Of a DNA stretch of 64,000 nt, positions 5,675-39,696 are shown piece by piece (position 1 is the first letter of the stretch; each line of letters opens with the position of its first letter). Both the position numbers and the translations under genes were made by a program. A model generated the notes under the pieces. That model worked only from the letters and a program-made list of their open reading frames with translations, was not told the DNA's origin and did no database searches. Source of the stretch: an uncultured Oscillospiraceae bacterium. Its GTDB lineage: Bacteria; Bacillota; Clostridia; UMGS1883. The stretch spans positions 77,896 to 141,895 of the forward strand of contig CAYLPQ010000001.1 of the NCBI GenBank assembly GCA_964385605.1, read 5' to 3'.

Positions 5675-5685
5675 ATTCTCACCCC

Positions 5686-18737: not shown

Positions 18738-20129
18738 CTATATACTATACATTGACAAATATTTCTTTGTGTTCTGTATCATTTCGTCAAATAACTTCCG
18801 TGCACTTTCCACATCAAGAGTTACAAGGGGATCGTTTACAAATGCATTGAATACACCCTCAATATCCCTGTTAGTAATTGCGGCATGAACTGCTTCCTGC
18901 TCTGCACATATTCTGGAAACAAGAGGATATATACTTTCAGGAATCCCGCCTGACATTACAGGCATAACACTGTCTGAACGGAAAACGGCATTTGTTTCAA
19001 CAACTGCTCCCATGGGAAGATTGGGAATCTGCCCTGTGTTTGGAATGTTTACATTTGTAACAAGGTCGCACAGTCCCACAAGAGCCCTTATTTGATTTAT
19101 ACCTTCCTCACCCGTTTTGTCAATTTTTACAGTTTCTTCACCGCTTCTTAATCTCTCGCTTCGTGCAATACGTTCCTTAAGCTCTTCTTTTCTGCTGTCA
19201 ACAGTTGTAAGAGCAAACCCCCATTTTTCTACAGTTTCCGGGTCTTTAAGGTACCATTTCCCTTCACAGAATTCCGCAAGATGTCTGTCGCCTGCGGCGG
19301 CAATGTAACCGTAGCGTTTAAAAAGGTCTATCTTTACCTTTTCCATACATTTAAGGTTTTTATTTGCCCAATTATCGTGAAGAGTTTCAGCATAGCCACA
19401 GTCAGAATATTTTTCGGCAAACTTACTGTACACCGGAAATAAATCCATATTCTTGTATTTTGCGGAAGTAATCCAGGTAAAGTGATTCACCGCAACGGGT
19501 GTAACCTTTATATCTTCTCTTTTTACATCCTTGATTCCGCAGATTTCTTCAAGCGCGGTCATAAGAACTTTCTGTGTGCCGAAAACCTCGTGACAGCATC
19601 CGAAAGCTTTGATTTCAGGGAAGGTTTTATAAAGAGTTTTTACACACAGTGTCATTGGGTTTGTGTAACTTATAACCCATGCATTCGGACAATATTCTTT
19701 TATATAATTTGCTATTTCTTCATACATAGGAACTGTACGCATCGCACGCACTATGCCTCCCGGGCCTGATGTATCTCCGACAGATTGATAAATTCCGTAT
19801 TTTTCAGGAGTATGTACATCAGAATACATTTCATCAAATGTTCCGGGCAAAATTGAAATTATAACAAAATCTGCATCAGTCATAGCCTCTTTTGCGGTTT
19901 TTACAGCATGGTAATTCCATACAGTATTTGCACCTTCGGCATTGTTAAATTTATTTCCTATAATTTCATTTGCAATTGCTGCATCATAATCGATATCATA
20001 AAGAAACACATCGCCGCTGATATCACTGCAGCTAGCAAGGTCACTCATAAGCCCCCAAGCCCAGCCACGGCTTCCGCCGCCGACATAAGCGATTTTTATA
20101 TCTCGCACACAATCTTTTTCAAATTTCAT
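18738..20129 (-). CDS. lplD: family 4 glycoside hydrolase (NAD+/Mn2+-dependent; LplD alpha-galacturonidase/alpha-glucosidase-like)
   Basis: The N-terminal IKIAYVGGGSRGWAWGLMSDLA Rossmann motif and a length of 463 aa are typical of GH4. The gene lies in the same region as the lplABC-like transporter. The symbol is by analogy only. Confidence 0.7.
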   Translation of the reverse strand: MKFEKDCVRDIKIAYVGGGSRGWAWGLMSDLASCSDISGDVFLYDIDYDAAIANEIIGNKFNNAEGANTVWNYHAVKTAKEAMTDADFVIISILPGTFDEMYSDVHTPEKYGIYQSVGDTSGPGGIVRAMRTVPMYEEIANYIKEYCPNAWVISYTNPMTLCVKTLYKTFPEIKAFGCCHEVFGTQKVLMTALEEICGIKDVKREDIKVTPVAVNHFTWITSAKYKNMDLFPVYSKFAEKYSDCGYAETLHDNWANKNLKCMEKVKIDLFKRYGYIAAAGDRHLAEFCEGKWYLKDPETVEKWGFALTTVDSRKEELKERIARSERLRSGEETVKIDKTGEEGINQIRALVGLCDLVTNVNIPNTGQIPNLPMGAVVETNAVFRSDSVMPVMSGGIPESIYPLVSRICAEQEAVHAAITNRDIEGVFNAFVNDPLVTLDVESARKLFDEMIQNTKKYLSMYSI

Positions 20130-20143
20130 GATAATCCACTCTC

Positions 20144-21025
20144 CTATTTAATTTCCCAGCCATTTTCACTATTTAAAAGACGCATTATAACAGGACGTTC
20201 ATCCTGCACAGGCTCGTTGGGCTTGTGCATAATAAAATACTCATTACCGCAAATATCCTCAAATATCATTCCGTGTCCGCCATTTTTATCCGAAACAGGA
20301 TTTTGAAGAACTTGCCAGTTTCCGTCTATATCCCCATTGTCGCTTTTTGCGATAAGCTCTGCATATCCGCTCCGGGTAAAGCTGGACCACAGGCAATATA
20401 ACTCACCATCTGTATTTCGTTTTAAAAACGGTCCGTCAGTAACAAAAGCAATCTCGTTTTCTCTTACGGTTTTTACACCTTTAAAATCAGATGCTTTCCA
20501 CAGTGTTTTGGGGACAGAAACGACTTCAGTCAAATCTGCCGAAAGCTGCACTTCACAGATTTCTCCGTCACCTGTCTGCAACCATTCATGACAAAAAACA
20601 ATGTGAGGGGCACCCTTTTTGTCAATATACAGAGTCCCATCAAGACATTCCCAATCGCGAGGAGTTACCGGGCAGTCTGATACCGGCACAAAATTGCCGT
20701 CAGGTGTATCAGAAACAAGAATATGCGTACCACGGCACTCTTTTTCTGACTTAAACGTGGCGAACATATAAAATTTTCCGTTGTAAAAATACACTTCCGG
20801 CGCCCAGAAATCCATGGTTCCCCAGAAACCATCTTGTTTCTCAAAAACGGATTTTGGTTCGTTCCAGTTTTTCAGGTCCTTGCTTACATAAACATCAAAC
20901 CCGGTTTGTTCACCCCATGGTTTTTCTTTTGTCGGCATGCCTACTCTTGAACCGTACATATAATATTTATTTTCCCACAACAAAATAAAAGGATCTCTTA
21001 TATTTATTTTTTCAAGTTTCATCAT
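20144..21025 (-). CDS. GH43-family glycoside hydrolase (beta-xylosidase/arabinofuranosidase-like five-bladed propeller)
   Basis: The N-terminal IRDPFILLWENKYYMYGS has the catalytic Asp motif. Internal WAPE and FYMFAT blocks are also present. The protein is cytoplasmic. Confidence 0.7.
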   Translation of the reverse strand: MMKLEKINIRDPFILLWENKYYMYGSRVGMPTKEKPWGEQTGFDVYVSKDLKNWNEPKSVFEKQDGFWGTMDFWAPEVYFYNGKFYMFATFKSEKECRGTHILVSDTPDGNFVPVSDCPVTPRDWECLDGTLYIDKKGAPHIVFCHEWLQTGDGEICEVQLSADLTEVVSVPKTLWKASDFKGVKTVRENEIAFVTDGPFLKRNTDGELYCLWSSFTRSGYAELIAKSDNGDIDGNWQVLQNPVSDKNGGHGMIFEDICGNEYFIMHKPNEPVQDERPVIMRLLNSENGWEIK

Positions 21026-23129
21026 AAACCTCTTTTGTAAGATTATGCTTTATTCCTTCTTTCAGTGCATTTATCTCGAAGTTCAGCAGATACTCCATCT
21101 GACGTATTTTCCATTTAATATGCTCCTCGTCTCCCAGATATTCCATCGATGGCTCCCATCCTAACCGTGAGTTTTTCTGAACAAGAGGAATGGCAGATTT
21201 TGCATTATCAATTTCAAGCAAGGCAATTTTCTCAAGTTCTTTAATGTACTTATTAATTACATTCGGATCATCCGAAGAATAGAGCCTTGTTCGCGCAACT
21301 GTATAGGTCTTTACATTTATTACACTACGGACAGTACACGCAATGAATTTTCCCAATTCAATAAGCTCCTCTAGTTCATCATTACATAACTCTATGCTTT
21401 CAAGAATATTAATTCCTTTCAGCAAATGATGCTCTAACACCTCAAAGGATTTTATTTCACGGTGTATTCTTATAGGAGAAACACTGATTTGGGTATTGCT
21501 GTCAAAGAAAGGATAATATGCTGAAGTTAAAATGCCTGTACCAAAATGTGCGTAATCAGCCTGCGGCGGTTTTATTTCACGATGCATACAGAACGGATAT
21601 GCCGGACCTATTCTGAATGCTCCGTATTGATCATCACACACTGCTATATAATGAGTAATTGCCTCACTCCATTCAAGCATTGCTTCATTAACTTTTTCAA
21701 CATTTTCTTCTCCGTATAAATTGCCAAGAAGTTCCTTTAAAATATTCTTTCTCGGCTTATCTGAAATTGTAAAACTCCATTTTGCAAACTCACTGATAAA
21801 TGATGGGTAAAATCCGTAATGATGTGACTCCATTAATCCGCATAAGCCGTATTCTTCTCTGCATTCAAGCAGTGCATCATATCTTTTTTGCCATTGATAT
21901 GGGAACGGCTCGTAGGGGATTACACCAAAATCCCATGTAAGACCTGCCGTATTTGCCATAGCATAAAGTCGAATGCCGTTCTCCTTTGCTGCTTTTGCCT
22001 CTGACAAGAAGCACTTTCCCGGTCCTGTTAACGACAATGTGTAATCCGACACATTTTCCATAACTCCGTTTTTTTCATAAATCTCACTCTTTTCAAAGGT
22101 TGCAAGAAGAGAAATATCCTCTGGCAAAGATTCTATGAGCTTTATGCGATCTATTTCGGGTGCGCCTCCCCAGTTATAGGTCCAGAATACAATGTCCGCC
22201 TCACTATTGTATTTTCTGATGACCTTTTTCAATAGATTCAACCAATCCGGGTAATCACAGCAAGGCCACCAGCCGGGATGCGTTTTTAAGTTTGGAATTC
22301 CGTCAGGACTTTTTCTTGAAATGCTTCCTGTAGTATTCGGGTCGTGACTTGGAAACGCAACTGATTCACCTACTAAAACAACACCCTTCAAGCCGGGACA
22401 TTCACGGAAAAGCTTACCGTAACTCCCATCATAATAATCATATGCCCCTTCATCATCCGGATGCATTTCACTTTTTAAATAGCTGTACGCATAAACGTCT
22501 ATGCCGTATTTAGCCGCTCTGCAAACTAACTCATTAAAGTCAAGAAACCCGTATGTTGTCATATTAGAGCCTTTTGTAAAAACCAAAATGGCATCCATCC
22601 CTGCGTGAGCAATATCACGCAAGTGACAATCTGGGAATTGGTCAATTCCATAGCCGGAATGGACCATTCTTGGAGAAAATGCAGCTTTACATTCTATAGT
22701 TTCTTTTTTAAGGAAAGGCGCTTTACGCAGTGTCATCATATCCTCCATACGGTACAATGCCTGTGCAACACCTCTTTCATCATGGGCTAAAACTTTTATG
22801 CTTTCTTCCACGGACAAACGGTATCCCATATAACCGTTACCTGTAGTCAATTGCTGTTCTTTATCAAAATCTATGCTGATAACTTTTTTGCCGGTTTCTT
22901 TTTTGCGCGCTATCATAACAGACACATTCATCGAAATGAGCATATACTCCTGAAAATCTTTTGCAGCCGTAAGAACGACATCACTGTCTGTTTGCGAGAT
23001 GTCAATTACAAACCCGTCTGTGATTACAAGTTCATCCTCACCGGGCATTATAGATACATTAACTATATCTTTTTTATGAATTTGCATCATTCTCTTTCTG
23101 AATTCATAATTTTTTTCGAGTTTTCTCAT
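21012..23129 (-). CDS. uncharacterised cytoplasmic 705-aa protein, putative glycoside hydrolase or phosphorylase (paralog of 12245..14326)
   Basis: It shares the same conserved blocks as ORF 12245..14326, for example GWWPCCDYPDWL, DIVFWTYNWG and GLCGLMESHHYGFYPSFI. There is no signal peptide. Confidence 0.5.
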   Translation of the reverse strand: MRKLEKNYEFRKRMMQIHKKDIVNVSIMPGEDELVITDGFVIDISQTDSDVVLTAAKDFQEYMLISMNVSVMIARKKETGKKVISIDFDKEQQLTTGNGYMGYRLSVEESIKVLAHDERGVAQALYRMEDMMTLRKAPFLKKETIECKAAFSPRMVHSGYGIDQFPDCHLRDIAHAGMDAILVFTKGSNMTTYGFLDFNELVCRAAKYGIDVYAYSYLKSEMHPDDEGAYDYYDGSYGKLFRECPGLKGVVLVGESVAFPSHDPNTTGSISRKSPDGIPNLKTHPGWWPCCDYPDWLNLLKKVIRKYNSEADIVFWTYNWGGAPEIDRIKLIESLPEDISLLATFEKSEIYEKNGVMENVSDYTLSLTGPGKCFLSEAKAAKENGIRLYAMANTAGLTWDFGVIPYEPFPYQWQKRYDALLECREEYGLCGLMESHHYGFYPSFISEFAKWSFTISDKPRKNILKELLGNLYGEENVEKVNEAMLEWSEAITHYIAVCDDQYGAFRIGPAYPFCMHREIKPPQADYAHFGTGILTSAYYPFFDSNTQISVSPIRIHREIKSFEVLEHHLLKGINILESIELCNDELEELIELGKFIACTVRSVINVKTYTVARTRLYSSDDPNVINKYIKELEKIALLEIDNAKSAIPLVQKNSRLGWEPSMEYLGDEEHIKWKIRQMEYLLNFEINALKEGIKHNLTKEVYDET

Positions 23130-23185: not shown

Positions 23186-25279
23186 TTAATTTTCATTAAG
23201 CATATTCATTACTTCAACTCCGGCACTTAATACAACACCTACACCGTGATCGTCATTTTCTATGGTATCAAGCTGCATATAATACTTTTCTTCCATATTA
23301 CAGCCTGAACCCATACATATTCCGTATACATTGCCTTTTTCGTCAATGCAGTTTCTGCATAATGATTTCCACGCATCATTTATTTCTTCTTTATATTCAG
23401 AAGATATCCAGCCGTTTACAATCCCTCTTGCAAGTGCTGTAATAAACATTGCACTGCCACTTGTTTCAATGTAGCTATCGGGGTTATCTATCACCTGGTG
23501 CCATATGCCTTTTTCTTTGTCACGGTATTTAAGAACACCCCGGGCAAACTTCTGAAAAACTGAAAGTATTTCTTCCCGCCCGTGATAATCTTCCGGCAAA
23601 AGCAGGAGCACCTCGGAAAGAGCAAGCAAAACCCATCCATTTCCTCTGCCCCATGGTACACGGTTAGCTTTATCTTCTTCCACGAAGAATATATGGGAAA
23701 ACAAATCCTTATCCTCCATATAAAGCCGCTTGTAAAACCCTCTTATCTGGATAAGAATATCATCAAAATAACATTCATTACCGCTTATCGCACCAAGACG
23801 AGCCATAAACGGAAGACACATATACATATCATCTGTCCACATAGTTTTTATGCGGTAAAATGTTCCGTCGGAGAATCTTGGTATTTTGTACGTAAGAACA
23901 TCACCAAGGATATTAAACAGATTCTCTGCATTGGAATCATTGGACATCATATAATATTCCGCAACATTTGTACCAATCGTTCCTATTGCGTCAAGACTTT
24001 TTATTCTTCCTCCGGTTGCAAGATATGATGCATATCCCGAACGTTCATTATCAACCGCACCATAATCACGGTGCAGGCAAAGAAGTTTCATACTTTCCGA
24101 AAAATATTGGTCAAAATCCTTTTTGCCAAGCTTCTGCGCGGCTTGCTTCATACCATAGAGTCCCACCATAATCGCATAAAACCATTTTCCGTAAAATGCA
24201 CTGTGAAGATATTGCCGAAGGTAAGTATTTTCCCTGTAAAAATTCCAGTACACACTTCCTCCCCAGGCCGTAGCATAAGGCTTAATAAATCCAAGTTCTG
24301 TTTCCGGTCCGTAGGGATAATCTACATTCTCTCCTTTTCTTCCGAAAGGACCTATCCATATCCACTGCAAATCAGGACAGTCAGCTCCGTCTATAAATGG
24401 AAGGCTGTGCTCGCCGGAAGTTTCAGCCGTAAAGCCCCACACATCTTCCTGGCGTGTGCTTTTTATCAAAAGCGGTGTATCACAGTTAAAGTTCTCTTCA
24501 AAAGCTCCGTTTTCAGAGTTATATATAATCTTATCCCCTGAAAAAACTTTAAGAGGATTTTTATGTTCAATTTTGATTTTTCCTTTTACACAGGTATAGG
24601 CATAAGCTGTGTAACCGTTTTTACACAATTTGGTAAAATCAAAAGTTTTTATATTGCTTTGAGGTGGTAAAACCGGATATACCCATTCAATTTCTTTAAT
24701 ATTCGGTTCTTTCTCTCCATTTTTATAAAGGCGGGAAAACTCAAGCAATTCCTGAAGCCTGTACCCCCTTTTTTTTACGTACTGCCAGGTGCAGTAAGCA
24801 TAGTCTCCGCCCGTTCCATATCTTAATTTGGGAACAAGAGGGAAAACATATACCGAAAAGTTTTCTTTCTCTGCAACTGCTTTTACAACTAGACGGTTCT
24901 CGCCTTTTTTGAAAGTTACGTATGTATCAAGAGTGTTATTGGGGCCGGTAGAAAGTATCTTTTCCTTTCCGTTAAAATACACCTTCGCTTCTGCACAACC
25001 TCTTATATTTATGAGTATTTCCCTTTCGTGGAGTCCTTCAAGGTAAGTTGATATATAAGCATAATCACCCTTATTATAACCGGGATAAACTTTTCCAAAA
25101 TCAACACCGGGTTTGTTTGACATATCAACATATTCATCATTTCGATACGGTCTGTATGATACCTTTGATTTCGGTCTGTATTTCAATGCATTCTCAAAAA
25201 TCTGATTGACAATTTCTCTGTTAGTTTTATGTTTTTCATTTATTGAATGTTCAACATATGTTCCCATAAATATCACCAT
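23186..25279 (-). CDS. GH88/GH105-like unsaturated uronyl hydrolase domain with a ~330-aa N-terminal extension
   Basis: The C-terminal half contains ANRVPWGRGNGWVLLALSEVLLLL, the GH88/GH105 (alpha/alpha)6 signature. It is a paralog of ORF 58510..60669. The track start is TTG; the ATG at 25277-25279 or the next ATG (MGTYVEH) is more likely. Confidence 0.65.
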   Translation of the reverse strand: MVIFMGTYVEHSINEKHKTNREIVNQIFENALKYRPKSKVSYRPYRNDEYVDMSNKPGVDFGKVYPGYNKGDYAYISTYLEGLHEREILINIRGCAEAKVYFNGKEKILSTGPNNTLDTYVTFKKGENRLVVKAVAEKENFSVYVFPLVPKLRYGTGGDYAYCTWQYVKKRGYRLQELLEFSRLYKNGEKEPNIKEIEWVYPVLPPQSNIKTFDFTKLCKNGYTAYAYTCVKGKIKIEHKNPLKVFSGDKIIYNSENGAFEENFNCDTPLLIKSTRQEDVWGFTAETSGEHSLPFIDGADCPDLQWIWIGPFGRKGENVDYPYGPETELGFIKPYATAWGGSVYWNFYRENTYLRQYLHSAFYGKWFYAIMVGLYGMKQAAQKLGKKDFDQYFSESMKLLCLHRDYGAVDNERSGYASYLATGGRIKSLDAIGTIGTNVAEYYMMSNDSNAENLFNILGDVLTYKIPRFSDGTFYRIKTMWTDDMYMCLPFMARLGAISGNECYFDDILIQIRGFYKRLYMEDKDLFSHIFFVEEDKANRVPWGRGNGWVLLALSEVLLLLPEDYHGREEILSVFQKFARGVLKYRDKEKGIWHQVIDNPDSYIETSGSAMFITALARGIVNGWISSEYKEEINDAWKSLCRNCIDEKGNVYGICMGSGCNMEEKYYMQLDTIENDDHGVGVVLSAGVEVMNMLNEN

Positions 25280-25352
25280 AGACAAGAATACAACACATTT
25301 TTCTTTATTTCCTTAAATTTGTTGTTCAAATAGAATAAAACAAGAAAATATT

Positions 25353-25380
25353 GTTGTATTTTTTATATTTTATGGTATAA
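25353..25380 (+). promoter_or_regulatory. sigma-A promoter of the AraC gene (TTGTAT, 16-nt spacer, TGgTATAAT extended -10)
   Basis: The -35 and -10 elements can be read directly. GAGGTG lies 7 nt before the ATG. The region overlaps the conserved 23-nt motif at 25335..25357. Confidence 0.65.
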
Positions 25381-25399
25381 TATCTTTGAGGTGATAAAA

Positions 25400-26209
25400 A
25401 TGCTGTTAAAACCGATTGAAGTTCCTCTTTTTGAAAAGAAATCCATTGAGGGGCGCCGTAAGATGCCCAAAGCACATTTTCATGATAAGCACGAGCTTTA
25501 TTACCTTGAAGAAGGACAGACAAAATATTTCATTGATACAGAAATATTTATCCTTGAGCCAGGCGATATGATTTTTATACCGAAAAATACACTTCATCGT
25601 ACAGAAAGCCTTGAATCAGAATCTGTCAGCCGTTCAATTCTTTATTTTAACGACTTTGATTTTGAGGATGAGCTTGCACCTTTTATTGAAAAACTTAAGC
25701 CCAGAAGGCTTATTAAAATCCAGCACAAAAAAATGCACTATATCCGTGGTCTTCTTGCCGAAATTGCCGAAGAAGAAGAAAAAAAGAAAGACGGATACCG
25801 TCAGATGCAGATGCTTTTCCTTAAACAGCTTGTTGTTATGATAGAAAGATATTGTATTGATAATGTTGAAAACAACATCAGTTCTTCGTACAGAGTTGCT
25901 GAAAACATTTCGAAATATATCAGGGAACATTACAACGAAAATTTAAGTCTTGCACACCTTTCCCGCGAATTTGCGATGACACCGTCGTATCTGTCAAGAA
26001 TTTTTAAGAAAAGCACCGGCATCAGCCTTAACGAATATATAAACATTGTAAGAATTACAGAGGCGGAAAAGCTTCTGAAAAATCCGGATATTTCTATAAC
26101 AGAGGTAGCTTTTGAGTGCGGTTTCAATGACAGCAATTACTTTTCATCCGTTTTCAAAAAAGCAAAAGGAATTACACCGAAAAAATTCTCAAAAATGAAT
26201 ATGGCATAA
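25400..26209 (+). CDS. AraC-family transcriptional regulator (cupin-like ligand domain + HTH_AraC)
   Basis: The C-terminus LAHLSREFAMTPSYLSRIFKKSTGISLNEYINIVRITEAEKLLKNPDISITEVAFECGFNDSNYFSSVFKKAKGITPKKF is the AraC signature. The track start is GTG at 25391; I prefer the ATG nine nucleotides downstream, which has GAGGTG. It is the only plus-strand gene in the window. Confidence 0.85.
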   Translation: MLLKPIEVPLFEKKSIEGRRKMPKAHFHDKHELYYLEEGQTKYFIDTEIFILEPGDMIFIPKNTLHRTESLESESVSRSILYFNDFDFEDELAPFIEKLKPRRLIKIQHKKMHYIRGLLAEIAEEEEKKKDGYRQMQMLFLKQLVVMIERYCIDNVENNISSSYRVAENISKYIREHYNENLSLAHLSREFAMTPSYLSRIFKKSTGISLNEYINIVRITEAEKLLKNPDISITEVAFECGFNDSNYFSSVFKKAKGITPKKFSKMNMA

Positions 26210-26298: not shown

Positions 26299-28848
26299 TT
26301 AATCGCAAAGTTCGTCATTCATAAATGCAACAGGTGAAATACCGTCTGCACCTATTACAAAAATCTTAATCTGGTCTACTCCGGTATTTGAGTAGGGATG
26401 CTGTGTAGACATATTCTTAAGAAGACCTGTATCTGCCACAAAATTCTCATTATCAGTAAGACTGATTGTTTTTACAAGGATAAGTTTTCCTTCAAGATAC
26501 TGTGCAACTACAATCTTTTCAGTGCCTGTGATACCTTCAAGCCAAAGTCCGTTGAAAGCACTTTTTCCGTTAAGTCCAAGCCCGCGGATAGATGCTGGAG
26601 CAAGTCTTTTTGTAAAAGTCTTTGACTCTGTAACTGTACCGTCAGCACTTGTAGCAGTGATTGTAAATTCAACTGTCTCGGGACTGTCAACGTCGATTGC
26701 TGTTACAGTCTCACCATTGACTTTGTACGTGATTGATGGACCGTCTGTCTGAAGAGTATATCTTGCAGGATTGTTATGAACATCTGTCTCATCCGTGTAG
26801 AAGTCAGAATTGTTATTAATCCATGACTTACTGATAGTCTTTTCAACAAGAGCTCTGTTGGTAAGTGTAGGATGAATTACATCTGAAGCATAGAGAACTG
26901 CTGCTGCGTTAAGAGCTGCATTTACTTCTGCTACATTTGCATCACTGAAGCTGCGGAGAGTTACGTTATCAAGCCATACATCGCCTGCAGCACTTGATAC
27001 CGTTGAAATACCACGAACTGTAGCGCTGGTTGTATTCGTCTTATAAGCATTTCTTCTTACAATGGGATGTGGTGTAACAAGAATACCGTCTGCGTAAACT
27101 TCGTATGTCTGCGACATGATGTTGAAGTCAAATACAACATTTATCCACTCACCTTCCTTATCCTGAAGAAATTCGGGCATAGGAAGCCAAAGTGTATCTA
27201 TATCATTACTTCTTAATCCGGTACCTGATTCATTTGCTACTGATTTTGTTGTACCAAAACCAATCTGTTTTGATTCAAAGTTAAATACAAGGAAACAGGA
27301 ATCTGCGCCCTGAATACCGGCAACCTGAACACCGCCATAGTTTGAGGTTGCTTCCTTGTCGTGGCGATATTTAACGTCTGCACTTGCAAGAACTCTGTCT
27401 GCAAATCCAGCGCCGGAGGCACCTGAACCTGCGCTAAGTGTACCGCTGCCTGCGGGAGCATTTTTGTGAAGAACAGTTGCATGAGCAGGATTTTCGTCAG
27501 TAACGTAACCTGTCTCACCTGCCTTGTCTTCAAAATCAATTCTTGAAAGGTTTGTTGTGCCTTCCTGTGCTACCTGAAGGTAGTAGGGAATTGTTTCAAC
27601 AACTTCGCCTGCTGTGATTGTAGCAGTGAAGGTAACGTTTTTCGGAATAAATGAATTTACAGCAGTTACCTTACCATCGTTTGTGATAACAGATGTATCG
27701 CTTGATTCATATGCAATTGTAACATTAGCTGATTCTGCAGGAGATGCTACAAGGTTAAGGTCGCTGTCAACACCAACAAGCTTTCCGTCAGAGGTGAGCT
27801 GATTTGCAAGAACAAGATTTTTGTAATAATCTGCTCTTTCCTGATCGGGGAGTGAGCCGATTACACCGTCTGCAGTAGATTCTGCATAAACATAGATATC
27901 ATCAACAAAGATGTGAGCAGTTGTTACTCTGAAGGGGAATGTAACCTTAACTGCCTTGTCAGATGTAAAATCAGGAACGTATGTCTTTGATGCATCGTAT
28001 GTAACATATTCTGTAAGCAAACCGTCCTGATAGTATTCAACCTTGCCAAGCTCTTTGTCAATTCTTATTGTAAGGTCAACAAAGTCTGTTCCGGGAACTG
28101 ATGTATTACGGCTGTTATTTACCGCAGTACCTCTTGTATGCCATGGATTAGCGGTCAAAAGGGCACCACCGTAAACTTTTCCTGCCCAACCGGCGCTACC
28201 AAGCATAAATTCGCCGGCTTTTGTGCCGCCCCAACTAATGTTCATGTTAAGACCTGAATGGGTTGTAGCCTTTACAGGAGCATAAACCTTTGCCTTCATA
28301 ACATAGTAACGTGCATTCTGAATTCCGGGGGCTTTGTTCATAGTGTAAACGAAAGCATCACCTGTAGCAGGAGCTGATGTATCACCATCGTTGTTCTTAA
28401 AGCCGAGCTTTGCATAGCTGTTGGTACCGTCCACAACATATTCGGCAGCAAATGTACCTGCACTGCTTGTTGCTACTGTCCAACCCTGATCTGTGCCGAT
28501 TGCATCGCCATTTTCAAGGTCATAATCCTCAAAAGTAACGATTTCGCTGACCCCAACGATTGTCTGGGGCTGTACCTTTACAGTAAAGCTTGTGCCGTTT
28601 ACTGTAAGAGTAACCTCCTCTACATCAAAAAGTGAACGGGTAACTGTACCATCAAGAGCAATTACAGCCTCGTTCGATGAAGTAACCGTTGCACCTTCAG
28701 GGAAAGTGAGGTTACCTGTGATAAATTCGGGAACCTGACCGTTTGAAATATCCTCAAACAAAACAGCTTCGCCTTCTGCCATTACAGTAAATGCACACAT
28801 TGAAAGTGCCATCATCATTGCAAGACAGAGTGCCATAAATTTTTTCAT
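26299..28848 (-). CDS. secreted 849-aa protein with ConA/LamG-like and Ig-like beta-rich domains (function unknown)
   Basis: The signal peptide is MKKFMALCLAMMMALSMCAFTVMA. It is beta-rich with two regions that look like LamG/ConA-like lectin folds. It has no SLH or catalytic motif I can name. Confidence 0.5.
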   Translation of the reverse strand: MKKFMALCLAMMMALSMCAFTVMAEGEAVLFEDISNGQVPEFITGNLTFPEGATVTSSNEAVIALDGTVTRSLFDVEEVTLTVNGTSFTVKVQPQTIVGVSEIVTFEDYDLENGDAIGTDQGWTVATSSAGTFAAEYVVDGTNSYAKLGFKNNDGDTSAPATGDAFVYTMNKAPGIQNARYYVMKAKVYAPVKATTHSGLNMNISWGGTKAGEFMLGSAGWAGKVYGGALLTANPWHTRGTAVNNSRNTSVPGTDFVDLTIRIDKELGKVEYYQDGLLTEYVTYDASKTYVPDFTSDKAVKVTFPFRVTTAHIFVDDIYVYAESTADGVIGSLPDQERADYYKNLVLANQLTSDGKLVGVDSDLNLVASPAESANVTIAYESSDTSVITNDGKVTAVNSFIPKNVTFTATITAGEVVETIPYYLQVAQEGTTNLSRIDFEDKAGETGYVTDENPAHATVLHKNAPAGSGTLSAGSGASGAGFADRVLASADVKYRHDKEATSNYGGVQVAGIQGADSCFLVFNFESKQIGFGTTKSVANESGTGLRSNDIDTLWLPMPEFLQDKEGEWINVVFDFNIMSQTYEVYADGILVTPHPIVRRNAYKTNTTSATVRGISTVSSAAGDVWLDNVTLRSFSDANVAEVNAALNAAAVLYASDVIHPTLTNRALVEKTISKSWINNNSDFYTDETDVHNNPARYTLQTDGPSITYKVNGETVTAIDVDSPETVEFTITATSADGTVTESKTFTKRLAPASIRGLGLNGKSAFNGLWLEGITGTEKIVVAQYLEGKLILVKTISLTDNENFVADTGLLKNMSTQHPYSNTGVDQIKIFVIGADGISPVAFMNDELCD

Positions 28849-28986
28849 AATGATTTCCTCCTTATATTATATTTTTCAATTATATTCTACAACACAGTTT
28901 TTGTCTTAACCTTGATTTTTTAACACAAATCAAGGTAAAACACGAAAATATTGCTGTATTAATTTACTTTTCTTTATAAAATGCCT

Positions 28987-30096
28987 TTATAGTTGATACG
29001 TTTTCAAGGGCAAGCTCATTCCTCTTGCGGCATTAGCTTTTACTTCCTCCGGAAGCCATACCGGAAAGTCTTTTACAAGGCAGCTTTTTAACTCACCACT
29101 TTTGTATCCATCAAGAATATCCTCGCAATAGCGCAGTGATTTTTCCTTGTCTGTTATTCTTGGAGTTTCTCCGAAAGCCTTTATAAAGCTGTTAATGTAA
29201 ATATCCATAACAACATTCCCGGGAAGACGTGCAGGATTAATGACAACATTTTCGCCGTAAATTTCAGGATTAAGGTCATAATAGACCGCGGTGAAGGGTT
29301 CACTTTCTTCAAGGAACTTACGGACAGGGGAATGCCTTGTTACAATTTCAAAGTCATCATCCTCTTCAAAACGGCAGTTATATGTATCTGTGCCATAGAT
29401 AACCCTGTCGCTGAACTTTGTGAAAAATTCGTTCCAACCTTCAAGGTCATCTGAAAATCTGATTATAAAATCACCGCCGAGGGCAAGGTCAACTGAAACT
29501 CCGGGATAAGTATCCATAATCTGTTCAAGATGTTTTCTGTCATGCGCCATATTGAACATATGAGCAAATGTAACACGAAGACGGGGATGCCGTTTTAAGA
29601 CATTCAGCATTTCATTCTGAATCACATCTCTCGCCTTTGTGTTTTCACTGTCGGGAAAAGCTACAAAATGACCTATATGCATTACAACCGGAAACTGGGT
29701 CTCTTCCAGAAATGCAAACATTGGCTCATATTTTTCACTGTCAAACTTGCAATTAAAAAGTTCGTGATAGTCTGTCTTTCCTTCAAGGATTTTTATCCCG
29801 TCAAAACCAAGGTCATAATAGAGCTTCACCTGACGGAGAAATTCATCGGCATTATCCCTTTTGTCACCGTGGTGAACAATCGCCGCAAAAGCAAACACAT
29901 TCTCTCCCATCTTATCTTTAAGATAAAGAGCCTTAAGATTCGAGGTGTTATCAATTCCCAGGTCGCCTGCGTATTCGTATGAAAGCACTGCGATTTTATC
30001 AAGATTAAGATACTCTACTTCTTTTTTCACGAGCAGCAATGTTTCTTCAATAGGACGATGAAAAGCAATATGCCAATGACCATCATTGATTTTCAC
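28987..30096 (-). CDS. metal-dependent TIM-barrel hydrolase, amidohydrolase-2-like (possible sugar lactonase)
   Basis: The N-terminal DGHWHIAFH and internal HHGD and MHIGHF histidine clusters are present. The protein is cytoplasmic. The assignment is tentative. Confidence 0.4.
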   Translation of the reverse strand: MKINDGHWHIAFHRPIEETLLLVKKEVEYLNLDKIAVLSYEYAGDLGIDNTSNLKALYLKDKMGENVFAFAAIVHHGDKRDNADEFLRQVKLYYDLGFDGIKILEGKTDYHELFNCKFDSEKYEPMFAFLEETQFPVVMHIGHFVAFPDSENTKARDVIQNEMLNVLKRHPRLRVTFAHMFNMAHDRKHLEQIMDTYPGVSVDLALGGDFIIRFSDDLEGWNEFFTKFSDRVIYGTDTYNCRFEEDDDFEIVTRHSPVRKFLEESEPFTAVYYDLNPEIYGENVVINPARLPGNVVMDIYINSFIKAFGETPRITDKEKSLRYCEDILDGYKSGELKSCLVKDFPVWLPEEVKANAARGMSLPLKTYQL

Positions 30097-30174
30097 ATTT
30101 GAAAATCCATTTTTTTTCTATATATTTACTCATATTTGTACCCCCTGTAAAGTGGAGATGCTGAAACTACGTTT

Positions 30175-32964
30175 TTAATCGTATTGTGAGTTCATATTTG
30201 TTATAACAACAAGGTCGTATACCGTACCGTCAATACGTTTTAAAAGAACCTTTGTATCCGGATTGAAATTCTCGTAACCTTTTGCTGTAAGCTGTGCCGC
30301 TGACGGAATTTTATCTCTAGTTATAACCTTGACTTCTTTTGTTTCGCAATCAAATTCAAATATGGACATTGAGCTTGATTCTGACTGAAGGATTGTCGTC
30401 CAGAAGGTTTCTTCAGTAGGGGTCTTATTTCCAGACATATTAATATAGTCTGCATTGGCTTTACTGTAAGTGCTGATTTTGTTACTGCCTACATGACACG
30501 GATAGCCCAGAATATAATAGTTTTCGTCATCGTTAATTTCTGTCTGTCCGTTCATGTCAAAATAAGTGTAATCGGGGTCAGTATCCCTCTGGGGAGAATA
30601 TACAATCCTGGCCCTGCTTATTCCCTCTTCATTATCAAAACCGATTTCAAAAACATCACCTGCAAGGATTTTTCCGTTGCTATCAGGGTAACGTTTTTTT
30701 ACTGCCTCGGAAAGAATGCCATCATATGATTCAACAAAGGATCTGAAGTCCTGTGCCCACCAACCGTTTATAGCCTGTTTGAATTCCCCGTCAAAGTCCT
30801 TCTGCACATAGGCTTCGGTAACTACAAAGAGTCTTGAATTTATATCTAGCGGTTCAGACACTACAATCGCTCCGGCTTCCCATCCGTCATCCGCATCATA
30901 AAGCTTAAGATAACAGCTACCGTAACGTCTTGTATAAGCCGTATAATCAATAACACTGACCAGTTCTTCGTTGGTTTCTTCCACAGTTTTAGAAGTGGTG
31001 TTAACGGCAAAAATTTTAGTATTTGAAGTTATAATCTGATTTCCGTTATAGGTTCTCAATCCATTTATACTCTTTGTTGAATATCCTGATTCACTTACAA
31101 AATCAAGGCTGAAGTTCTCAAGGTCAAAGCCGAACATTGAGCCTGTATTATCAGTTGCGGAGTCAAGCTCCTTCAGTTTTCCGTCAGAGTTTATTCTCAC
31201 CATTACAAGCTGCGGCTTGATATTGCCTGTCGCTGCATCGAAGAAAATACTTGATGAAAGGATGTCATTACCGGTCTTATTTTTTATGCCGTCAAAAGTC
31301 AATTTATCGGCAACCGGAACTGTTACATAATCATTGCTTTCAAGAAGAAGCTTTACACTTACTCTACCGCCGTCAAGTCCCTGTCCTGTCTTTCCTGCAT
31401 CCAGCATATAAGCATACTGGAGTCTGCCTTGTGTTTCAATAAGCATCGCTATGTTTCCCTCATAGTTAAGAAGCACTCTATATGACGACCCCGGCACAGG
31501 GGCATTAAAAGTTACCGGCTTTGTATTCATAAGGGTTTCATAGGTATTGGAAAATTCGTAAACCATATCACCAAATATAACTCTTATTTTTCCGTCTTCA
31601 GCTGTTTCGACAGATTCTGCAACAATTTCCAAAGTCAGCTCGGAAACAATAAAACGAATTTTTTCATTATTCTTGCTTCTGAATACCGATACAACACTGT
31701 TTTCCTTTATGCCGTCGGGCAAAATTTGCTCACCTGCGGCATTCTGGAAAATGCAAGTTTTATATTCTCCGTAATTTATAAACGCATAATCATCCTCGGA
31801 ATAAGTTGCCACAAACTTTTTTGTCTCTGCATTGCAATTTTTAAAAACAATATCGCGGTATTCCTCTGCTATTACTGTTTCATAGTCACCGTCCATATCT
31901 GCATCGATAAGCTTTAGGGTTCCGTCCTTAATTTTGAGGGTTTCGCCGTTAAAGGTTTTGTCAAGACCTCCGTTATAGATAAGGTTGGCATACGGGTCTA
32001 TCCTATATTTTTTCTTTTTACCGTTAATTTCCGCAGTCACACAAGTCTTGGAAAAATCTCCGGACTCTGTCAGAAGTTCATAAGCTTTTACTGTTACGAT
32101 GTCATTTCTGCCTGTTTTTTCACTGACATAAAGCAGTGCATTATTATCCTGCTTATAGTAATACTCTACATAACAACCAAGAAATTCTCTTTCCCGGTCA
32201 TCTGTCCCTGTGAGAACTTTTTTACCTATTTTACTACAATCAATCGCAAGAGCCGTTTCTCCGTTTATCGCAGTAATACCGTTATCTGTCATAACACCTT
32301 CGCCGATATAGATACTATGATATACGTTAAGCGCTGTGTTATCCTCATAGCTTGCAAAATAAGCCTTATCATTTGTGAGGTAAACAATTTCATAGACCTC
32401 TGCTTCTGCAGATAACTTTATAAGGTTTGCCGCTGTATCAAATGTAAGAGGTGCATCAAAATCGTAGGGTGGATTATCTACAATACCGATATTATATGCA
32501 CAACGCAAGTATCCATCCGAATAACCTCCTGCTACTGTAGCCGCCGGGGTATATCCAAGAGCAGTAACAACCGTTTTTATCGCCTGCCTGTATGTAATAG
32601 GTTCGTCCGGTAAAAATCTCCCGTCTCCCACACCATTCATAATACCCAAGGCTGCCATAGCATCAATTTCACAGGCATAAAGATTACTTTGCGGAACATC
32701 AGTGAAACAGTTATTAGTGTTATAATCTTTGTTTATCCCTAAAAGATCTGCAACCATTTTGGCAAATGTAGCCCTGGAAACTGTAGAGTCCGGCTTTTCT
32801 TCGGGAAAACTATATATTTCAAGGAATGTTATGAAATCGACATTTTTCTCATAATCTGCAGTGTCTGTTACCGATGTCTTATTTTCCTCCTGTGCGAAGG
32901 TTGGCATTCCGGACACAAGCAGTGCTATCAGCAGGACAAGCGCAGTTATTTTATTAAATCTCAT
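30175..32964 (-). CDS. cell-surface protein with three N-terminal SLH domains and a large beta-rich C-terminal region (929 aa)
   Basis: After the signal peptide (MRFNKITALVLLIALLVSGMPTFA) come SLH-like repeats: FTDVPQSNLYACEIDAMAALGIMNGVGDGRFLPDEPITYRQAIKTVVTALGY and flanking repeats. Confidence 0.65.
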   Translation of the reverse strand: MRFNKITALVLLIALLVSGMPTFAQEENKTSVTDTADYEKNVDFITFLEIYSFPEEKPDSTVSRATFAKMVADLLGINKDYNTNNCFTDVPQSNLYACEIDAMAALGIMNGVGDGRFLPDEPITYRQAIKTVVTALGYTPAATVAGGYSDGYLRCAYNIGIVDNPPYDFDAPLTFDTAANLIKLSAEAEVYEIVYLTNDKAYFASYEDNTALNVYHSIYIGEGVMTDNGITAINGETALAIDCSKIGKKVLTGTDDREREFLGCYVEYYYKQDNNALLYVSEKTGRNDIVTVKAYELLTESGDFSKTCVTAEINGKKKKYRIDPYANLIYNGGLDKTFNGETLKIKDGTLKLIDADMDGDYETVIAEEYRDIVFKNCNAETKKFVATYSEDDYAFINYGEYKTCIFQNAAGEQILPDGIKENSVVSVFRSKNNEKIRFIVSELTLEIVAESVETAEDGKIRVIFGDMVYEFSNTYETLMNTKPVTFNAPVPGSSYRVLLNYEGNIAMLIETQGRLQYAYMLDAGKTGQGLDGGRVSVKLLLESNDYVTVPVADKLTFDGIKNKTGNDILSSSIFFDAATGNIKPQLVMVRINSDGKLKELDSATDNTGSMFGFDLENFSLDFVSESGYSTKSINGLRTYNGNQIITSNTKIFAVNTTSKTVEETNEELVSVIDYTAYTRRYGSCYLKLYDADDGWEAGAIVVSEPLDINSRLFVVTEAYVQKDFDGEFKQAINGWWAQDFRSFVESYDGILSEAVKKRYPDSNGKILAGDVFEIGFDNEEGISRARIVYSPQRDTDPDYTYFDMNGQTEINDDENYYILGYPCHVGSNKISTYSKANADYINMSGNKTPTEETFWTTILQSESSSMSIFEFDCETKEVKVITRDKIPSAAQLTAKGYENFNPDTKVLLKRIDGTVYDLVVITNMNSQYD

Positions 32965-32980
32965 ACTTAATCCTCCTGAC

Positions 32981-34798
32981 TTATTTTTCTATCAATTCGC
33001 AAATCAACTTTACTGCCTGTGCTCTTGTAAGCTCTTCCATTGGACGGAAGCTTCCGTCTTCGAAGCCTGAAATTATACCTGCTGCTACGAGCATTTCTAC
33101 ACTTTCTGCAGCATATTCTGAAATTTCATCAAAATCTGTTACACTACCACTACCGGAAAGAGTAATACCATTCTTTTTGCACAGGCGCGCAATCATTACA
33201 GCTGCGTCCTGCCTTGAAACGGGTTTTGCCGGCATAAATGTTCCGTCACCCATTCCATTAATGATGCCTGAATCCACTGCAATTTTTATGTAAGAAGCAG
33301 ACCATCTGTCATTTTCAACATCGCTGAAGTTTAACTCTGCCTCTGATTCTTCAAGTTCAAATGCTACTACCAGCATTTTCACAAACTGCTCTCTAGTAAC
33401 TTCCTTATCAGGCATAAAGGATCCGTCGGGATAACCTTCAACAACTTTCTTTGAAGAAAGATTTTTTATTGAAGTGTATGCCCAGTGAGAATCTGTAATA
33501 TCAGTATAATACACACCCTGCACTTCATCTTTTTCTTTATCAGAACTGATAAGATTATCATTAACACCCAAAATGTTATTCATATTTGAGCTTCCGCCTG
33601 TGCCGGAGAATCCGCCACCGTCAGAGCTTCCGCCACTACTGCTTCCACCGCCACCGGAGGATCCGCCACCGCCTGAAGATGACCCACCTTTAAGTACATT
33701 TATACGTTTTTTGAGAGCTTCGAGTACCTGCGACGGTTTTTCAAAATCTTTGTCTACAAATGCCTTGTTTACCTCGTAATCTGTATACTTTTCACAATAG
33801 ATAGCATAATCTGTCTTATCAAGACCAAGAAGTACAGAATACTTTTCTATAACGGGTGCAACAGTTGTTGCATCCTTCGTATTAAGAAGAGCAAGTGCTA
33901 CCGCCTGCGCTATTGCAGTTTTTACATCCGTCATACATTCAGGCGCATCATCCTTAAGAATTGTTGCTGCAATTGGATAAGCTGCATCCTTCATAAGAGT
34001 ATAATGTTCATTCTCTTCTGAAAAGTCATACCCGATAAGATTACCGTACTTGCCGATGTAATTTTTAATATCTTCACTACTGATGCTTTCGGGAAATTCA
34101 CGAAGTGCATCTACAATTTCGAGAACATTTGTAATATCCTGCATTGAATTGAATTTTTTTCCTGTAGCAGAAGAAACTTTACAGTCGTTATTTCTTACTG
34201 AAATAAACTTTTCATGTATTTCGTCTTTGTTAGCCTGATAGTCATCGCCAAGCTCAATTCCCAAAAGGAGCTGATTTTGTCTCAAAAGTTCTTCAAGCTC
34301 ACTTGCTTCTGCATTTTCAAATGCCGGAAGTGTTACATGAGTGATAGTATCATCTGTGTAATACTGTCTGAGAATTGATGCTTCAACAGGCATTCTGCCA
34401 CTACCACTGGCTTTTACTATGAGGTACTGCCCGTTTTCAATGCCGTCAAGAGCAAAACGAATGCTATATTCACCGTTTACAGATGCCTTTACCTCGTTCC
34501 AACGAATGAGCTTTGTAATATCCTCAAGAGGCTTCATTTCCGCAGGATTCTCTGAAAGCTCACCATTTTCAAGTCTGATATCCTCAAGACCGTTTATAAA
34601 TGCAGGGTCATATACTACTATATTTATAGCCTGACCATATTTTGCGGGAGTTGTTCCACTTACAACAAGGAATTCTCCCTCATCAGAAAAGTCAAACTCT
34701 GCATTAAGAACAAAACCTTCAGCTGCACCGACCTGTACAGAACACAATGTGAAAAGCATTGTCAATGCGAGAATTAAACTGATTAACTTGTTTTTCAT
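32981..34798 (-). CDS. cell-surface protein with a helical N-terminal region, a Gly/Ser linker and three C-terminal SLH domains (605 aa)
   Basis: After the signal peptide comes the linker GGSSSGGGGSSGGGGSSSGGSSDGGGFSGTGGSS. The C-terminus has SLH repeats: WAYTSIKNLSSKKVVEGYPDGSFMPDKEVTREQFVKMLV, WSASYIKIAVDSGIINGMGDGTFMPAKPVSRQDAAVMIARL and AAESVEMLVAAGIISGFEDGSFRPMEELTRAQAVKLI. Confidence 0.7.
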   Translation of the reverse strand: MKNKLISLILALTMLFTLCSVQVGAAEGFVLNAEFDFSDEGEFLVVSGTTPAKYGQAINIVVYDPAFINGLEDIRLENGELSENPAEMKPLEDITKLIRWNEVKASVNGEYSIRFALDGIENGQYLIVKASGSGRMPVEASILRQYYTDDTITHVTLPAFENAEASELEELLRQNQLLLGIELGDDYQANKDEIHEKFISVRNNDCKVSSATGKKFNSMQDITNVLEIVDALREFPESISSEDIKNYIGKYGNLIGYDFSEENEHYTLMKDAAYPIAATILKDDAPECMTDVKTAIAQAVALALLNTKDATTVAPVIEKYSVLLGLDKTDYAIYCEKYTDYEVNKAFVDKDFEKPSQVLEALKKRINVLKGGSSSGGGGSSGGGGSSSGGSSDGGGFSGTGGSSNMNNILGVNDNLISSDKEKDEVQGVYYTDITDSHWAYTSIKNLSSKKVVEGYPDGSFMPDKEVTREQFVKMLVVAFELEESEAELNFSDVENDRWSASYIKIAVDSGIINGMGDGTFMPAKPVSRQDAAVMIARLCKKNGITLSGSGSVTDFDEISEYAAESVEMLVAAGIISGFEDGSFRPMEELTRAQAVKLICELIEK

Positions 34799-37699: not shown

Positions 37700-37714
37700 A
37701 GTCTACCTCCCATA

Positions 37715-39274
37715 TCAGTCGGCGGCAATTATTCTGATGGCATTAATTGCTATATCTTTATTGGAAGTAATTGTGTTTGTACCACTTCCTATATCTGTGA
37801 TATCAAAAGTCATCTTCTGCCATTTTCCGCTTTCTGAAACAGTCTTTTCCTCTCCGTTAAGAGTAATTACTGTATCGTCTGTGGGAGCATTGTACGTAAC
37901 TATAACCTTTACATTTCCCGTATAGAGGTCACTGTCAGTTACATTGAACTCAACTGCACCTCCGGGAATTGAAGAAAGTTTTATTCCTGTACGGTTACCA
38001 ATTTTTTCAGGAATGAAGCCTGCCGCATTTGTTGTCAGGTCACACACGACCGTCCCTCCGTCTGCAGTAAGGTATGAGCCGGCATTTTTCTTAAGAGTAT
38101 AAAATTCGTCTGTTTCCCCATCTGTATCAAAAATCGGATACACTTTGAAATCACGAACCTTAATACCGGTTGTCCGCCAGTCATCGCAGCTTATTCTGAA
38201 GTTGTAGTAACCATTACCCAGATTGTCGTTGTACTGGAAAGTATCACCTGCCTGAAGGGGATAAACTCTTCTTATAGTTTTCCATGTATTTGTATTTGTT
38301 TTTGTAATTGCAAGTGATCTGTTCTGCCTGTTTCCGTCAGCTCTCGTGACATAGGCATCAAAAGTCATTTTTGAAGATCCTTCATCAAAATATGTAAATT
38401 CATAAGCAACAGCCTCTGCTCCCGAAGTCTCTGCAAAATAATCGTCTGAAAATCTGTAAGTAAGAAATGCCTGTCCCTGAACACCGTTTGCAATACGGTA
38501 TGTTGACCAGAAGCAGTCAAGTCCGCCCGCCTGTGTCTTTGTAACATAGAAGTTTCTGTTTTCCTCCGTGAGAGTACCTGTAAAAATGAAATTTCCGTCA
38601 GGCGACTGTGTGTATTCATCAGTAGTGATAGCCGCATTTTTGTAAAGTGTTGTTGCACTTACTTCACCAACTTCGGATTCCTTACCCTCTGTATCTACTG
38701 CACGAACTTCAAAATTGTAATCAGTTCCACTTGCAAGATTCTCAACAGTGCAGTTGAGATTTGCACAATCCTCTGCCACAAGCATCCCTTCATCGTAGAT
38801 ATTATAAGTAAGGTTATCTGTGCTGTCATAATCGTCAAGGGCACCTTCCCAGTTGATTGTGGCATCTGACACATTTGCAATTGCAGAAAGCCCCTCTGGA
38901 GCTGTAGGAGCATTGTTAAGAAGAGACATATTTCCGGAAAGACTATTCCAGACATTGTAGGCAAGAACTCCGCCATCCTCGGTCTTATCTTCAAGAGTTA
39001 AGCTGATTGTATTTCCATCGAGAAGAGAAACATCCTCACATACCTCTGCATTAACAGAAAGTATTCTGCCGGAATCAGGGTGCATATATGCCGCAACAAG
39101 CACCGCACTCTTCCCTGCAGGCTTTGAAAGAAGCTCCGCATTAACTGTAGTTACCCCGTTTTCTGTCTGCACCGTAGTTTCCCCAATAATAACTCTTTCC
39201 TCTGTTGCGCTTACATTAACGCATCCAAAAAGAACCATCATTGTAAGCATAAGCACTAAAAACTTTTTCATCAT
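37715..39274 (-). CDS. secreted protein with a fibronectin type III domain and a LamG/ConA-like region (519 aa)
   Basis: The signal peptide is MMKKFLVLMLTMMVLFGCVNVSA. The FN3 signature is NLTYNIYDEGMLVAEDCANLNCTVENLASGTDYNFEVRAVDTEGKESEVGEVSATT. Confidence 0.55.
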   Translation of the reverse strand: MMKKFLVLMLTMMVLFGCVNVSATEERVIIGETTVQTENGVTTVNAELLSKPAGKSAVLVAAYMHPDSGRILSVNAEVCEDVSLLDGNTISLTLEDKTEDGGVLAYNVWNSLSGNMSLLNNAPTAPEGLSAIANVSDATINWEGALDDYDSTDNLTYNIYDEGMLVAEDCANLNCTVENLASGTDYNFEVRAVDTEGKESEVGEVSATTLYKNAAITTDEYTQSPDGNFIFTGTLTEENRNFYVTKTQAGGLDCFWSTYRIANGVQGQAFLTYRFSDDYFAETSGAEAVAYEFTYFDEGSSKMTFDAYVTRADGNRQNRSLAITKTNTNTWKTIRRVYPLQAGDTFQYNDNLGNGYYNFRISCDDWRTTGIKVRDFKVYPIFDTDGETDEFYTLKKNAGSYLTADGGTVVCDLTTNAAGFIPEKIGNRTGIKLSSIPGGAVEFNVTDSDLYTGNVKVIVTYNAPTDDTVITLNGEEKTVSESGKWQKMTFDITDIGSGTNTITSNKDIAINAIRIIAAD

Positions 39275-39610: not shown

Positions 39611-39651
39611 CAAAATGCAAACATAATTTCAAGCAAATTTCCTATATAGTT

Positions 39652-39685: not shown

Positions 39686-39696
39686 AACAGGATGGT

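Follow-up and report, generated by a model that had tools for sequence, protein, structure and literature searches.

Local regulators of the AraC family are typical of Gram-positive polysaccharide utilisation loci (PMC5320581), and PecR, PecR2 and HemR of Caldicellulosiruptor bescii are predicted AraC-family regulators of pectin use (PMC8579813). In Escherichia coli, RhaS recognizes two inverted half-sites that overlap the −35 element, and AraC combines a strong with a weak half-site and with a remote site for repression, so that repression and activation can proceed from alternative half-site pairs (PMC11983282). Direct and inverted site pairs both occur within the family, as documented for ToxT, XylS and AdpA (PMC9722767).

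Here we describe a 23-nucleotide box at three promoters in a 64-kb window, the whole stretch of DNA that was analysed, from an uncultured gut Clostridia bacterium. The regulator encoded there belongs to a clade from uncultured Oscillospirales-like MAGs labelled Acutalibacteraceae or Ruminococcaceae. Comparative analysis indicates that the box is most likely the operator of the cupin-type AraC-family regulator encoded at 25400-26209, which would co-control three pectin-type gene clusters. Literature searches for the motif or for the regulator clade found no description. We regard the assignment as solid at the level of an operator and regulon of an uncharacterised AraC clade, which is an ordinary type of regulatory element and leaves current understanding of AraC-type regulator action unchallenged.

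Among NCBIfam families, the regulator resembles RhaS best. As in the E. coli RhaS/RhaR system (rhaI1-rhaI2 at rhaBAD, and the RhaR site at rhaSR), a protein of about 270 amino acids joins a cupin to an AraC-type DNA-binding domain, and two inverted half-sites of about 17-23 bp, the proximal one reaching the core promoter, precede a sugar-catabolic operon. The half-sites here are 23 bp long and 24-26 bp apart, against 14-16 bp between those of RhaS, and the proximal inverted copy lies at −33 to −11 rather than at −48 to −32. Unlike RhaS, one strong box would serve two divergent promoters, and no CRP partner is expected in Clostridia. With AraC (araI1-araI2/araO2 in E. coli) the locus shares a divergent, predicted autoregulated regulator gene, a strong half-site followed by a weaker candidate proximal one overlapping the −35 region, and, about where a class II site would lie, the candidate partial direct copy RCAA-N7-AAGG; a choice between alternative half-site pairs may exist here too. 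The direct copy lies 30 bp from the box and not 21 bp as in AraC, and a distant O2-like site was not seen. The box is also marbox-like (MarA/SoxS) in its two short elements, 7-bp A/T-rich spacer and length of about 20 bp, matching ACAA-N7-TTGT, but MarA is a monomer without a sensor domain, whereas the elements of the present box make up a dyad accompanied by a candidate second site. The likeness to PecR, PecR2 and HemR lies in the setting: a local AraC-family regulator beside pectin/oligogalacturonide genes in Clostridia-type bacteria, recognized by comparative genomics. The regulator aligns over its full length with RhaS, AraC and RhaR at scores below the NCBIfam equivalog cutoffs (115.3 versus 288 bits for RhaS, 102.8 versus 208 for AraC and 90.5 versus 525 for RhaR), and thus shares their architecture without being an orthologue of any named regulator.

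Three copies of a 23-nucleotide box

The degenerate 23-mer TAAAACAMGAAAATWTTGYTGTA has exactly three matches in the window with up to three mismatches allowed, all on the plus strand and all with zero mismatches to the degenerate pattern. The target genes of all three lie on the minus strand, the strand on which the boxes are listed below, with scores from a weight matrix built only from boxes of other genomes.

25336-25358, minus strand: distal box of site 1, TACAACAATATTTTCTTGTTTTA (target orientation), 35.0 bits
28936-28958, minus strand: distal box of site 2, TACAGCAATATTTTCGTGTTTTA, 28.7 bits
39521-39543, minus strand: distal box of site 3, TACAACAAAATTTTCTTGTTTTA, 30.4 bits
18738-25267, minus strand: target operon 1, encoding GH88/105 (PF07470; 23186-25267), an unknown 705-aa protein (21012-23129), GH43 (20144-21025) and GH4 (18738-20129)
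26299-28848, minus strand: target 2, encoding a secreted 849-aa protein with an aBig_2 domain
28987-39274, minus strand: target operon 3, encoding an FN3 protein (519 aa, 37715-39274), a 966-aa protein (34799-37699), two SLH proteins (605 aa, 32981-34798; 929 aa, 30175-32964) and an amidohydrolase_2 (369 aa, 28987-30096)

The earlier note had reported three near-identical copies in the same orientation; the common orientation holds, as do the coordinates of the second and third copies, and the first begins at 25336 rather than at 25335. That copy was correctly placed upstream of the divergent GH105-like gene, since it lies between the GH88/105 ATG at 25267 (taken from the gene call) and the araC ATG at 25400. 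Boxes 2 and 3 lie 88 nt from the ATG at 28848 and 247 nt from the ATG at 39274, close to the roughly 90 and 250 nt first estimated.

A chance origin, which the earlier note had thought unlikely, finds no parallel in randomized sequence. In 100 dinucleotide-preserving shuffles of the window, the pattern, again with up to three mismatches, was found a mean of 0.00 times (largest count 0), against three times in the window itself. The matrix scan of the source genome covered the 64-kb window, where the next-best position reached 14.4 bits compared with 28.7-35.0 bits for the three sites; maxima from 50 Markov-shuffled windows scored with the same non-window matrix averaged 12.1 bits, the largest being 17.2. 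The 23-mer is a real repeated motif that forms only the upstream part of a conserved, roughly 95-nt promoter module. This larger module, the minus-strand targets and the inverted copies 48 nt downstream of the box were missing from the earlier description. As a testable sequence for the operator we offer the consensus a(a/t)tACAACAAtATTTTCTTGTTTT.

The adjacent regulator and its promoter

25400-26209, plus strand: gene of the araC-family regulator, a 269-aa protein with cupin/AraC_binding at its N terminus and HTH_18 at its C terminus
25373-25381, plus strand: extended −10 of araC, TGgTATAAT, 19 nt past the end of the box

The regulator is encoded by the only plus-strand gene nearby, divergent from the GH88/105 unit. 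It has both the C-terminal domain of two helix-turn-helix motifs that is typical of the AraC/XylS family (PF12833 HTH_18, 82.4 bits with a cutoff of 33.6; PF00165 HTH_AraC, 77.1 bits with a cutoff of 26.6, in two stretches) and the N-terminal cupin for ligand binding and dimerisation of the AraC/RhaS subtype (PF02311 AraC_binding, 44.4 bits with a cutoff of 21.1; PF07883 Cupin_2, 38.7 bits with a cutoff of 27.2), and its relatives in the PDB are the DNA-binding domains of AraC, MarA, ToxT and XylR.

The araC promoter has a TG at 25373-25374 and a −10 TATAAT at 25376-25381. Of 13 loci, 12 have 19-20 nt between the end of the box and an extended −10 of the form TGnTAnnnT, after which come a GGTGA-type ribosome-binding site and the araC start codon; this spacing puts the box at about −52 to −32, overlapping the −35 region. 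The overlap with the araC −35 region noticed earlier thus holds, through the last bases of the first copy. At class II marbox promoters, the box likewise ends 19-20 bp before the −10 hexamer. The placement of the box at the araC promoter is the classical one for autoregulation, which is expected here. We rejected a reading of the box as solely an UP element of the araC promoter: C5, C8, C17 and G20 are 76-94% conserved, and the box is also present away from any araC gene.

A conserved promoter module upstream of the targets

In gene orientation, the module runs from the box (−80 to −58) through a variable linker of 23±1 nt to AAGG (−36 to −33) and a −10 hexamer, TAnnnT. Alignment of the three window promoters with nine from other genomes, 12 in all, resolves three conserved blocks with unconserved DNA between them: the box, an AAGG-ending block with the consensus AAWTWAAGGAAA, and the −10 hexamer. 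AAGG is invariant in this alignment (invariant columns A48, G49 and G50) and begins 22-24 nt after the box and, in most of the promoters, 23-24 nt before the hexamer. A−11 and T−7 of TAnnnT are invariant in 12/12 promoters, and from its fixed place we read the hexamer as a sigma-70-type −10.

25311-25314, minus strand: site 1 AAGG, −36 to −33, the invariant columns
25285-25290, minus strand: site 1 predicted −10 of the GH88/105 operon, TATTCT, at an inferred position
28910-28913, minus strand: site 2 AAGG
28879-28889, minus strand: site 2 −10 region, in which TAGAAT (28884-28889) keeps the conserved spacing and TATAAT (28879-28884) overlaps it
39495-39498, minus strand: site 3 AAGG
39464-39474, minus strand: site 3 −10 region, in which CAGAAT (39469-39474) keeps the conserved spacing and TATAAT (39464-39469) overlaps it

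For the GH88/105 operon the predicted transcription start falls near 25278; the corresponding predictions are 28877 for site 2 and 39462 for site 3, both approximate and on the minus strand, and about 25388 on the plus strand for araC. Target promoters have a good −10, mostly without an extended −10, and carry the non-consensus AGGAAA at the −35 position. Pairwise identity averages 83% across the box, 72% across the −35 block and 77% across the −10, and drops to 46% in the linker and 36% downstream. Such block-wise conservation with diverged linkers points to selection on separate elements and not to recent duplication. A sigma-H-type promoter for AAGGAAA was considered and rejected: a GAAT-type −10 occurs only at sites 2 and 3, the other promoters being of TATAAT type, and AGGA lies about 3 nt farther from the −10 than in the sigma-H consensus.

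The leaders of the targets differ in length and layout. At the GH88/105 operon promoters of the window (25267-25290), L055 and L056, only about 13-15 nt separate the predicted start from the ATG; this short leader, conserved in the three genomes, would place the GGTGA ribosome-binding site almost at the 5′ end of the transcript. At site 3, the box-dependent −10 lies about 190 nt from the FN3 start codon, and a second sigma-70-like promoter, TTAACA-16-TATAGT (39351-39324), sits inside the leader; its orthologue in L144 (9807-10000) likewise combines two promoters, with a strong TGGTACAAT. The site 3 leader (39274-39474) has no Rfam match. Upstream of site 3, after an M20 peptidase gene, are two tandem terminator-like hairpins (39577-39592 and 39649-39688), one with a perfect 18-bp stem and the other with a T-run behind a GC-rich stem. 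Between box and AAGG (28906-28939), site 2 has an additional inverted repeat of 13 nt, TTAACCTTGATTT / AAATCAAGGTAAA, and a comparable ACCTT...AAGG arrangement is present in L040. Beyond the boxes of sites 2 and 3, on the side away from the targets, lie −10-like hexamers (TAAAAT, 28977-28982, and TATTAT, 39561-39566), 20 and 19 nt from the box, with araC-promoter-like spacing and pointing away from the targets; they are absent in L056 and L144 and may be vestigial or due to chance.

Second copies of the box and the predicted mode of action

The box itself consists of ACAA and TTGT with 7 bp between them and centres 11 bp apart. Centres 11 bp apart are expected for the footprint of one AraC-type DNA-binding domain that carries two helix-turn-helix motifs. 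Weaker, inverted copies of the box lie 48 nt downstream of it, start to start, and cover −33 to −11.

25289-25311, minus strand: site 1 proximal inverted copy, GAAATAAAGAAAAATGTGTTGTA, about −33 to −11, 16.3 bits in leave-one-out scoring, offset 47
28888-28910, minus strand: site 2 proximal inverted region, ..AGACAAAAACTGTGTTGTA, −9.6 bits, the weakest of the three
39473-39495, minus strand: site 3 proximal inverted copy, GAAATTAGGAAAAAAATGTTGCA, 4.7-7.3 bits at offset 48

A leave-one-out box matrix was run in reverse orientation along each of 15 promoters, and in 13 of them the best reverse match fell at offset 47-50, usually 48. The mean reverse score is −3 bits at offset 48 and about −30 bits at other offsets; site 1 and L040 reach 16 bits, and five others 5-11 bits. 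At site 1 the two arms form an inverted repeat (I1) of 27 nt with 78% complementarity. The left half of the box, by itself, has its best forward match at offset 30, which corresponds to the partial direct copy RCAA-N7-AAGG at about −47 to −33. Judged as a class II second half-site, both the inverted and the direct copy are conserved in position, and neither is canonical in place with full similarity.

We consider it likely that the box is the operator of the regulator at 25400-26209 and works mainly by activation. From the sequence comparisons we infer binding of the regulator as a dimer, activation rather than repression, and an inducer derived from pectin or hexuronate. The 23-mer would be the high-affinity half of the operator of this cupin-type AraC/XylS-family protein, with ACAA and TTGT each contacted by one helix-turn-helix of a single AraC-type domain. 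The regulator presumably dimerizes through its cupin domain, placing one subunit on the distal box at about −69; such a dimer would need a second site, and the other subunit may occupy a weaker promoter-proximal one, either the inverted copy at −33 to −11 or the partial direct copy at about −47 to −33. Sugar binding would then activate the targets and switch on three units: GH88/105-705aa-GH43-GH4, the aBig_2 secreted protein, and FN3-966aa-SLH-SLH-amidohydrolase. Through the site 1 box, at −52 to −32 of the divergent araC promoter, the regulator would control its own synthesis. Sugar-dependent activation is favoured because the targets lack a consensus −35 and mostly an extended −10, features that make them look activator-dependent, while araC has an extended −10.

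Counter to activation, the best-supported second copy, at −33 to −11, has a repressor-like position and not the usual −35-proximal position of an activator. An inverted copy there keeps open a repressive or dual, AraC-like switch built from the same regulator and operator, which we rate as possible but unlikely. Without inducer, a dimer would bridge the distal box and the −33 to −11 copy, occluding the target core promoter and the regulator's own −35, and inducer would release or move the protein. The fixed offset of the inverted copy over the spacer and the start of the −10 fits this, as does the overlap of the box with the −35 region of the araC promoter; the proximal arms are also 67-80% identical among the three window sites, compared with 53% over all pairs, and AraC itself represses by bridging distant half-sites (PMC11983282). 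Besides the activator-dependent look of the targets, it speaks against repression that in 5 of the 12 aligned promoters conservation of the proximal arm does not extend to its outer half, and that most sugar-responsive AraC/XylS proteins are activators (PMC9722767). Both second copies could be put to use in a compact three-site AraC-type 'light switch' common to the two divergent promoters, within 70 bp and without a long-range loop: the strong box would be the anchor, the inverted copy at −33 to −11 would serve sugar-free shut-off, and the direct copy at −47 to −33 would serve sugar-bound recruitment of RNA polymerase. We think this arrangement quite unlikely.

The box in related genomes

Orthologous loci were reached through homologues of the regulator. 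The loci with the box beside the regulator gene (L055-L059, L061-L064, L040, L138/139, L140/141 and L142/143) come from different metagenomes and MAGs. The box adjoins the cupin-AraC orthologue in every recovered locus with at least 42% regulator identity, amounting to 12 independent loci at 42-75%. Conservation in orthologous loci, a check that the earlier note had suggested, is thereby borne out, and its proposal of a shared operator with the soluble AraC at 25400-26209 as regulator gains support from comparative evidence. In L055 (75%), L056 (69%), L142 (64%), L057 (54%), and L138 and L140 (both 48%), the regulator gene diverges from an operon headed by GH88 or GH4, and the intergenic box has the same module; L055 and L056 repeat the gene order of target operon 1 beside araC. 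A metagenome scan with the AraC alignment returned only relatives of at most 46% identity, and in those of 42-46% (L058, L059 and L061-L064) the best site of the locus lies just upstream of the regulator gene, scoring 17-33 bits with a matrix made without these loci. L067 (42%) has a 23.9-bit box nearby in the opposite orientation, for which reason it was excluded from the alignments. The geometry to both divergent promoters is fixed across loci.

In relatives of at most 40% identity, box scores are noise, and 557 kb of related Clostridia loci from 33-36% relatives hold one match above 15 bits. The box thus behaves as a local autoregulated operator would, conserved in the regulator's own upstream region, rare elsewhere and diverging with the regulator. 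When 596 Gb of species-representative genomes were scanned for the exact pattern AAAACANGAAAATNTTGNTGTA, 53 single matches came up, almost all of them within coding sequence of unrelated phyla; only L040, where the box precedes uxaB, looks genuine, and it alone encodes an AraC orthologue, beside the box. The scan does not amount to a genome-wide census, because its pattern is too closely tied to the window variant and the GTDB representatives do not include the source species.

Further boxes precede aBig_2-type secreted-protein genes in L056 (at 14278) and L144 (at 1102), the latter adjoining a different AraC paralogue, 26% identical. L144, which comes from the same MAG as L055, also has a weak 13.9-bit box with a full AAGG/−10 module before its FN3 operon orthologue (at 9812). 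It is the only FN3 orthologue to keep one: the box was not found at the FN3 cassettes of L145 and L146, which belong to other operons.

It is very improbable that the box is bound by another protein, one of the larger AraC-type regulators of the window (9932-12121 and 56910-58397) or a global regulator, with the adjacency of the small araC being incidental. Two such regulators are indeed encoded in the window, and the inner AACAA-N7-TTGTT dyad could suit a classical dimeric helix-turn-helix protein; however, the box travels with the small cupin-AraC in loci without large regulators (L040, L057, L138 and L140), and its score falls as the small AraC diverges. The rarity of the box, with only three sites in 64 kb and the single match in 557 kb, excludes a global regulator.

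Pairing of the arms in RNA, as a leader hairpin or attenuator, or their extrusion as a DNA cruciform, is extremely improbable. Sites 1 and 2 do fold better than shuffled sequence (z = −3.9 and −5.3), and 79% of arm cells are pairable compared with 51-66% in slid controls. Against this, site 3 has a z of only −0.8, and the 3′ end of the element holds the conserved −10, which puts the distal arm upstream of the predicted start. RNAalifold gives a consensus energy of −0.06 kcal/mol, with the 5-bp inner ACAA/TTGT dyad as the only conserved pairing; covariation is not significant (three pairs show changes on both sides, and 74 of 500 shuffles reach that number), and no Rfam match reaches the gathering score. 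That the copies are remnants of a small mobile element, or a recent promoter duplication, without shared function is vanishingly improbable: the spacing of about 26 nt between the inverted arms and the presence of three copies in 15 kb might suggest it, but the module keeps its position by orthologous genes whose regulators are only 42-75% identical, linkers have diverged to background (46%) while blocks are kept, and the exact-pattern genome scan found no element-like copies elsewhere.

The predicted regulon and neighbouring loci

With the box read as the operator of the small cupin-AraC, the regulon can be placed by its gene content. GH4 is the gene most constantly linked to the regulator across loci, and its other neighbours elsewhere are GH88/105, GH43, uxaA, uxaB and uxaC; the GH4, GH88/105 and uxa neighbours point to a regulon for the catabolism of hexuronate or pectin-type oligosaccharides. 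The promoter architecture and consensus would thus describe an AraC clade that is widespread in uncultured gut and rumen Clostridia and consistently tied to genes for pectin and hexuronate use. With the consensus, regulon members should be predictable in MAGs, and predicted membership links large secreted SLH, FN3 and aBig_2 proteins of unknown function to the degradation of pectin-type glycans. In Clostridia, the module might in addition find use as a sugar-inducible promoter part.

In L144 (MAG GCA_045651805.1), a different motif, GCGAACAAAAGTGAAT ... ATGCATTGAAA, is common to two upstream regions (924-1205 and 5745-6128) that adjoin a 297-aa AraC paralogue, 26% identical to the window regulator; this motif, which is absent from the 64-kb window, is probably the operator of that paralogue. 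Several MAGs (L144, L145 and L146) share with the window a cassette of four genes, for an FN3 protein (about 519 aa), a protein of about 967 aa and two SLH proteins (about 605 and about 929 aa), that keeps its gene order and protein sizes and is inserted into different operons governed by different AraC-type regulators.

Nearly all genes of the window lie on the minus strand. The window also encodes the two further AraC-type regulators (9932-12121, 729 aa; 56910-58397, 495 aa), another GH88/105 protein, a heparinase II/III-like protein of 1064 aa and a sugar ABC transporter (58510-60669, 6769-9963 and 3185-6642). Such gene content indicates several Gram-positive polysaccharide loci side by side, each probably with its own regulator.
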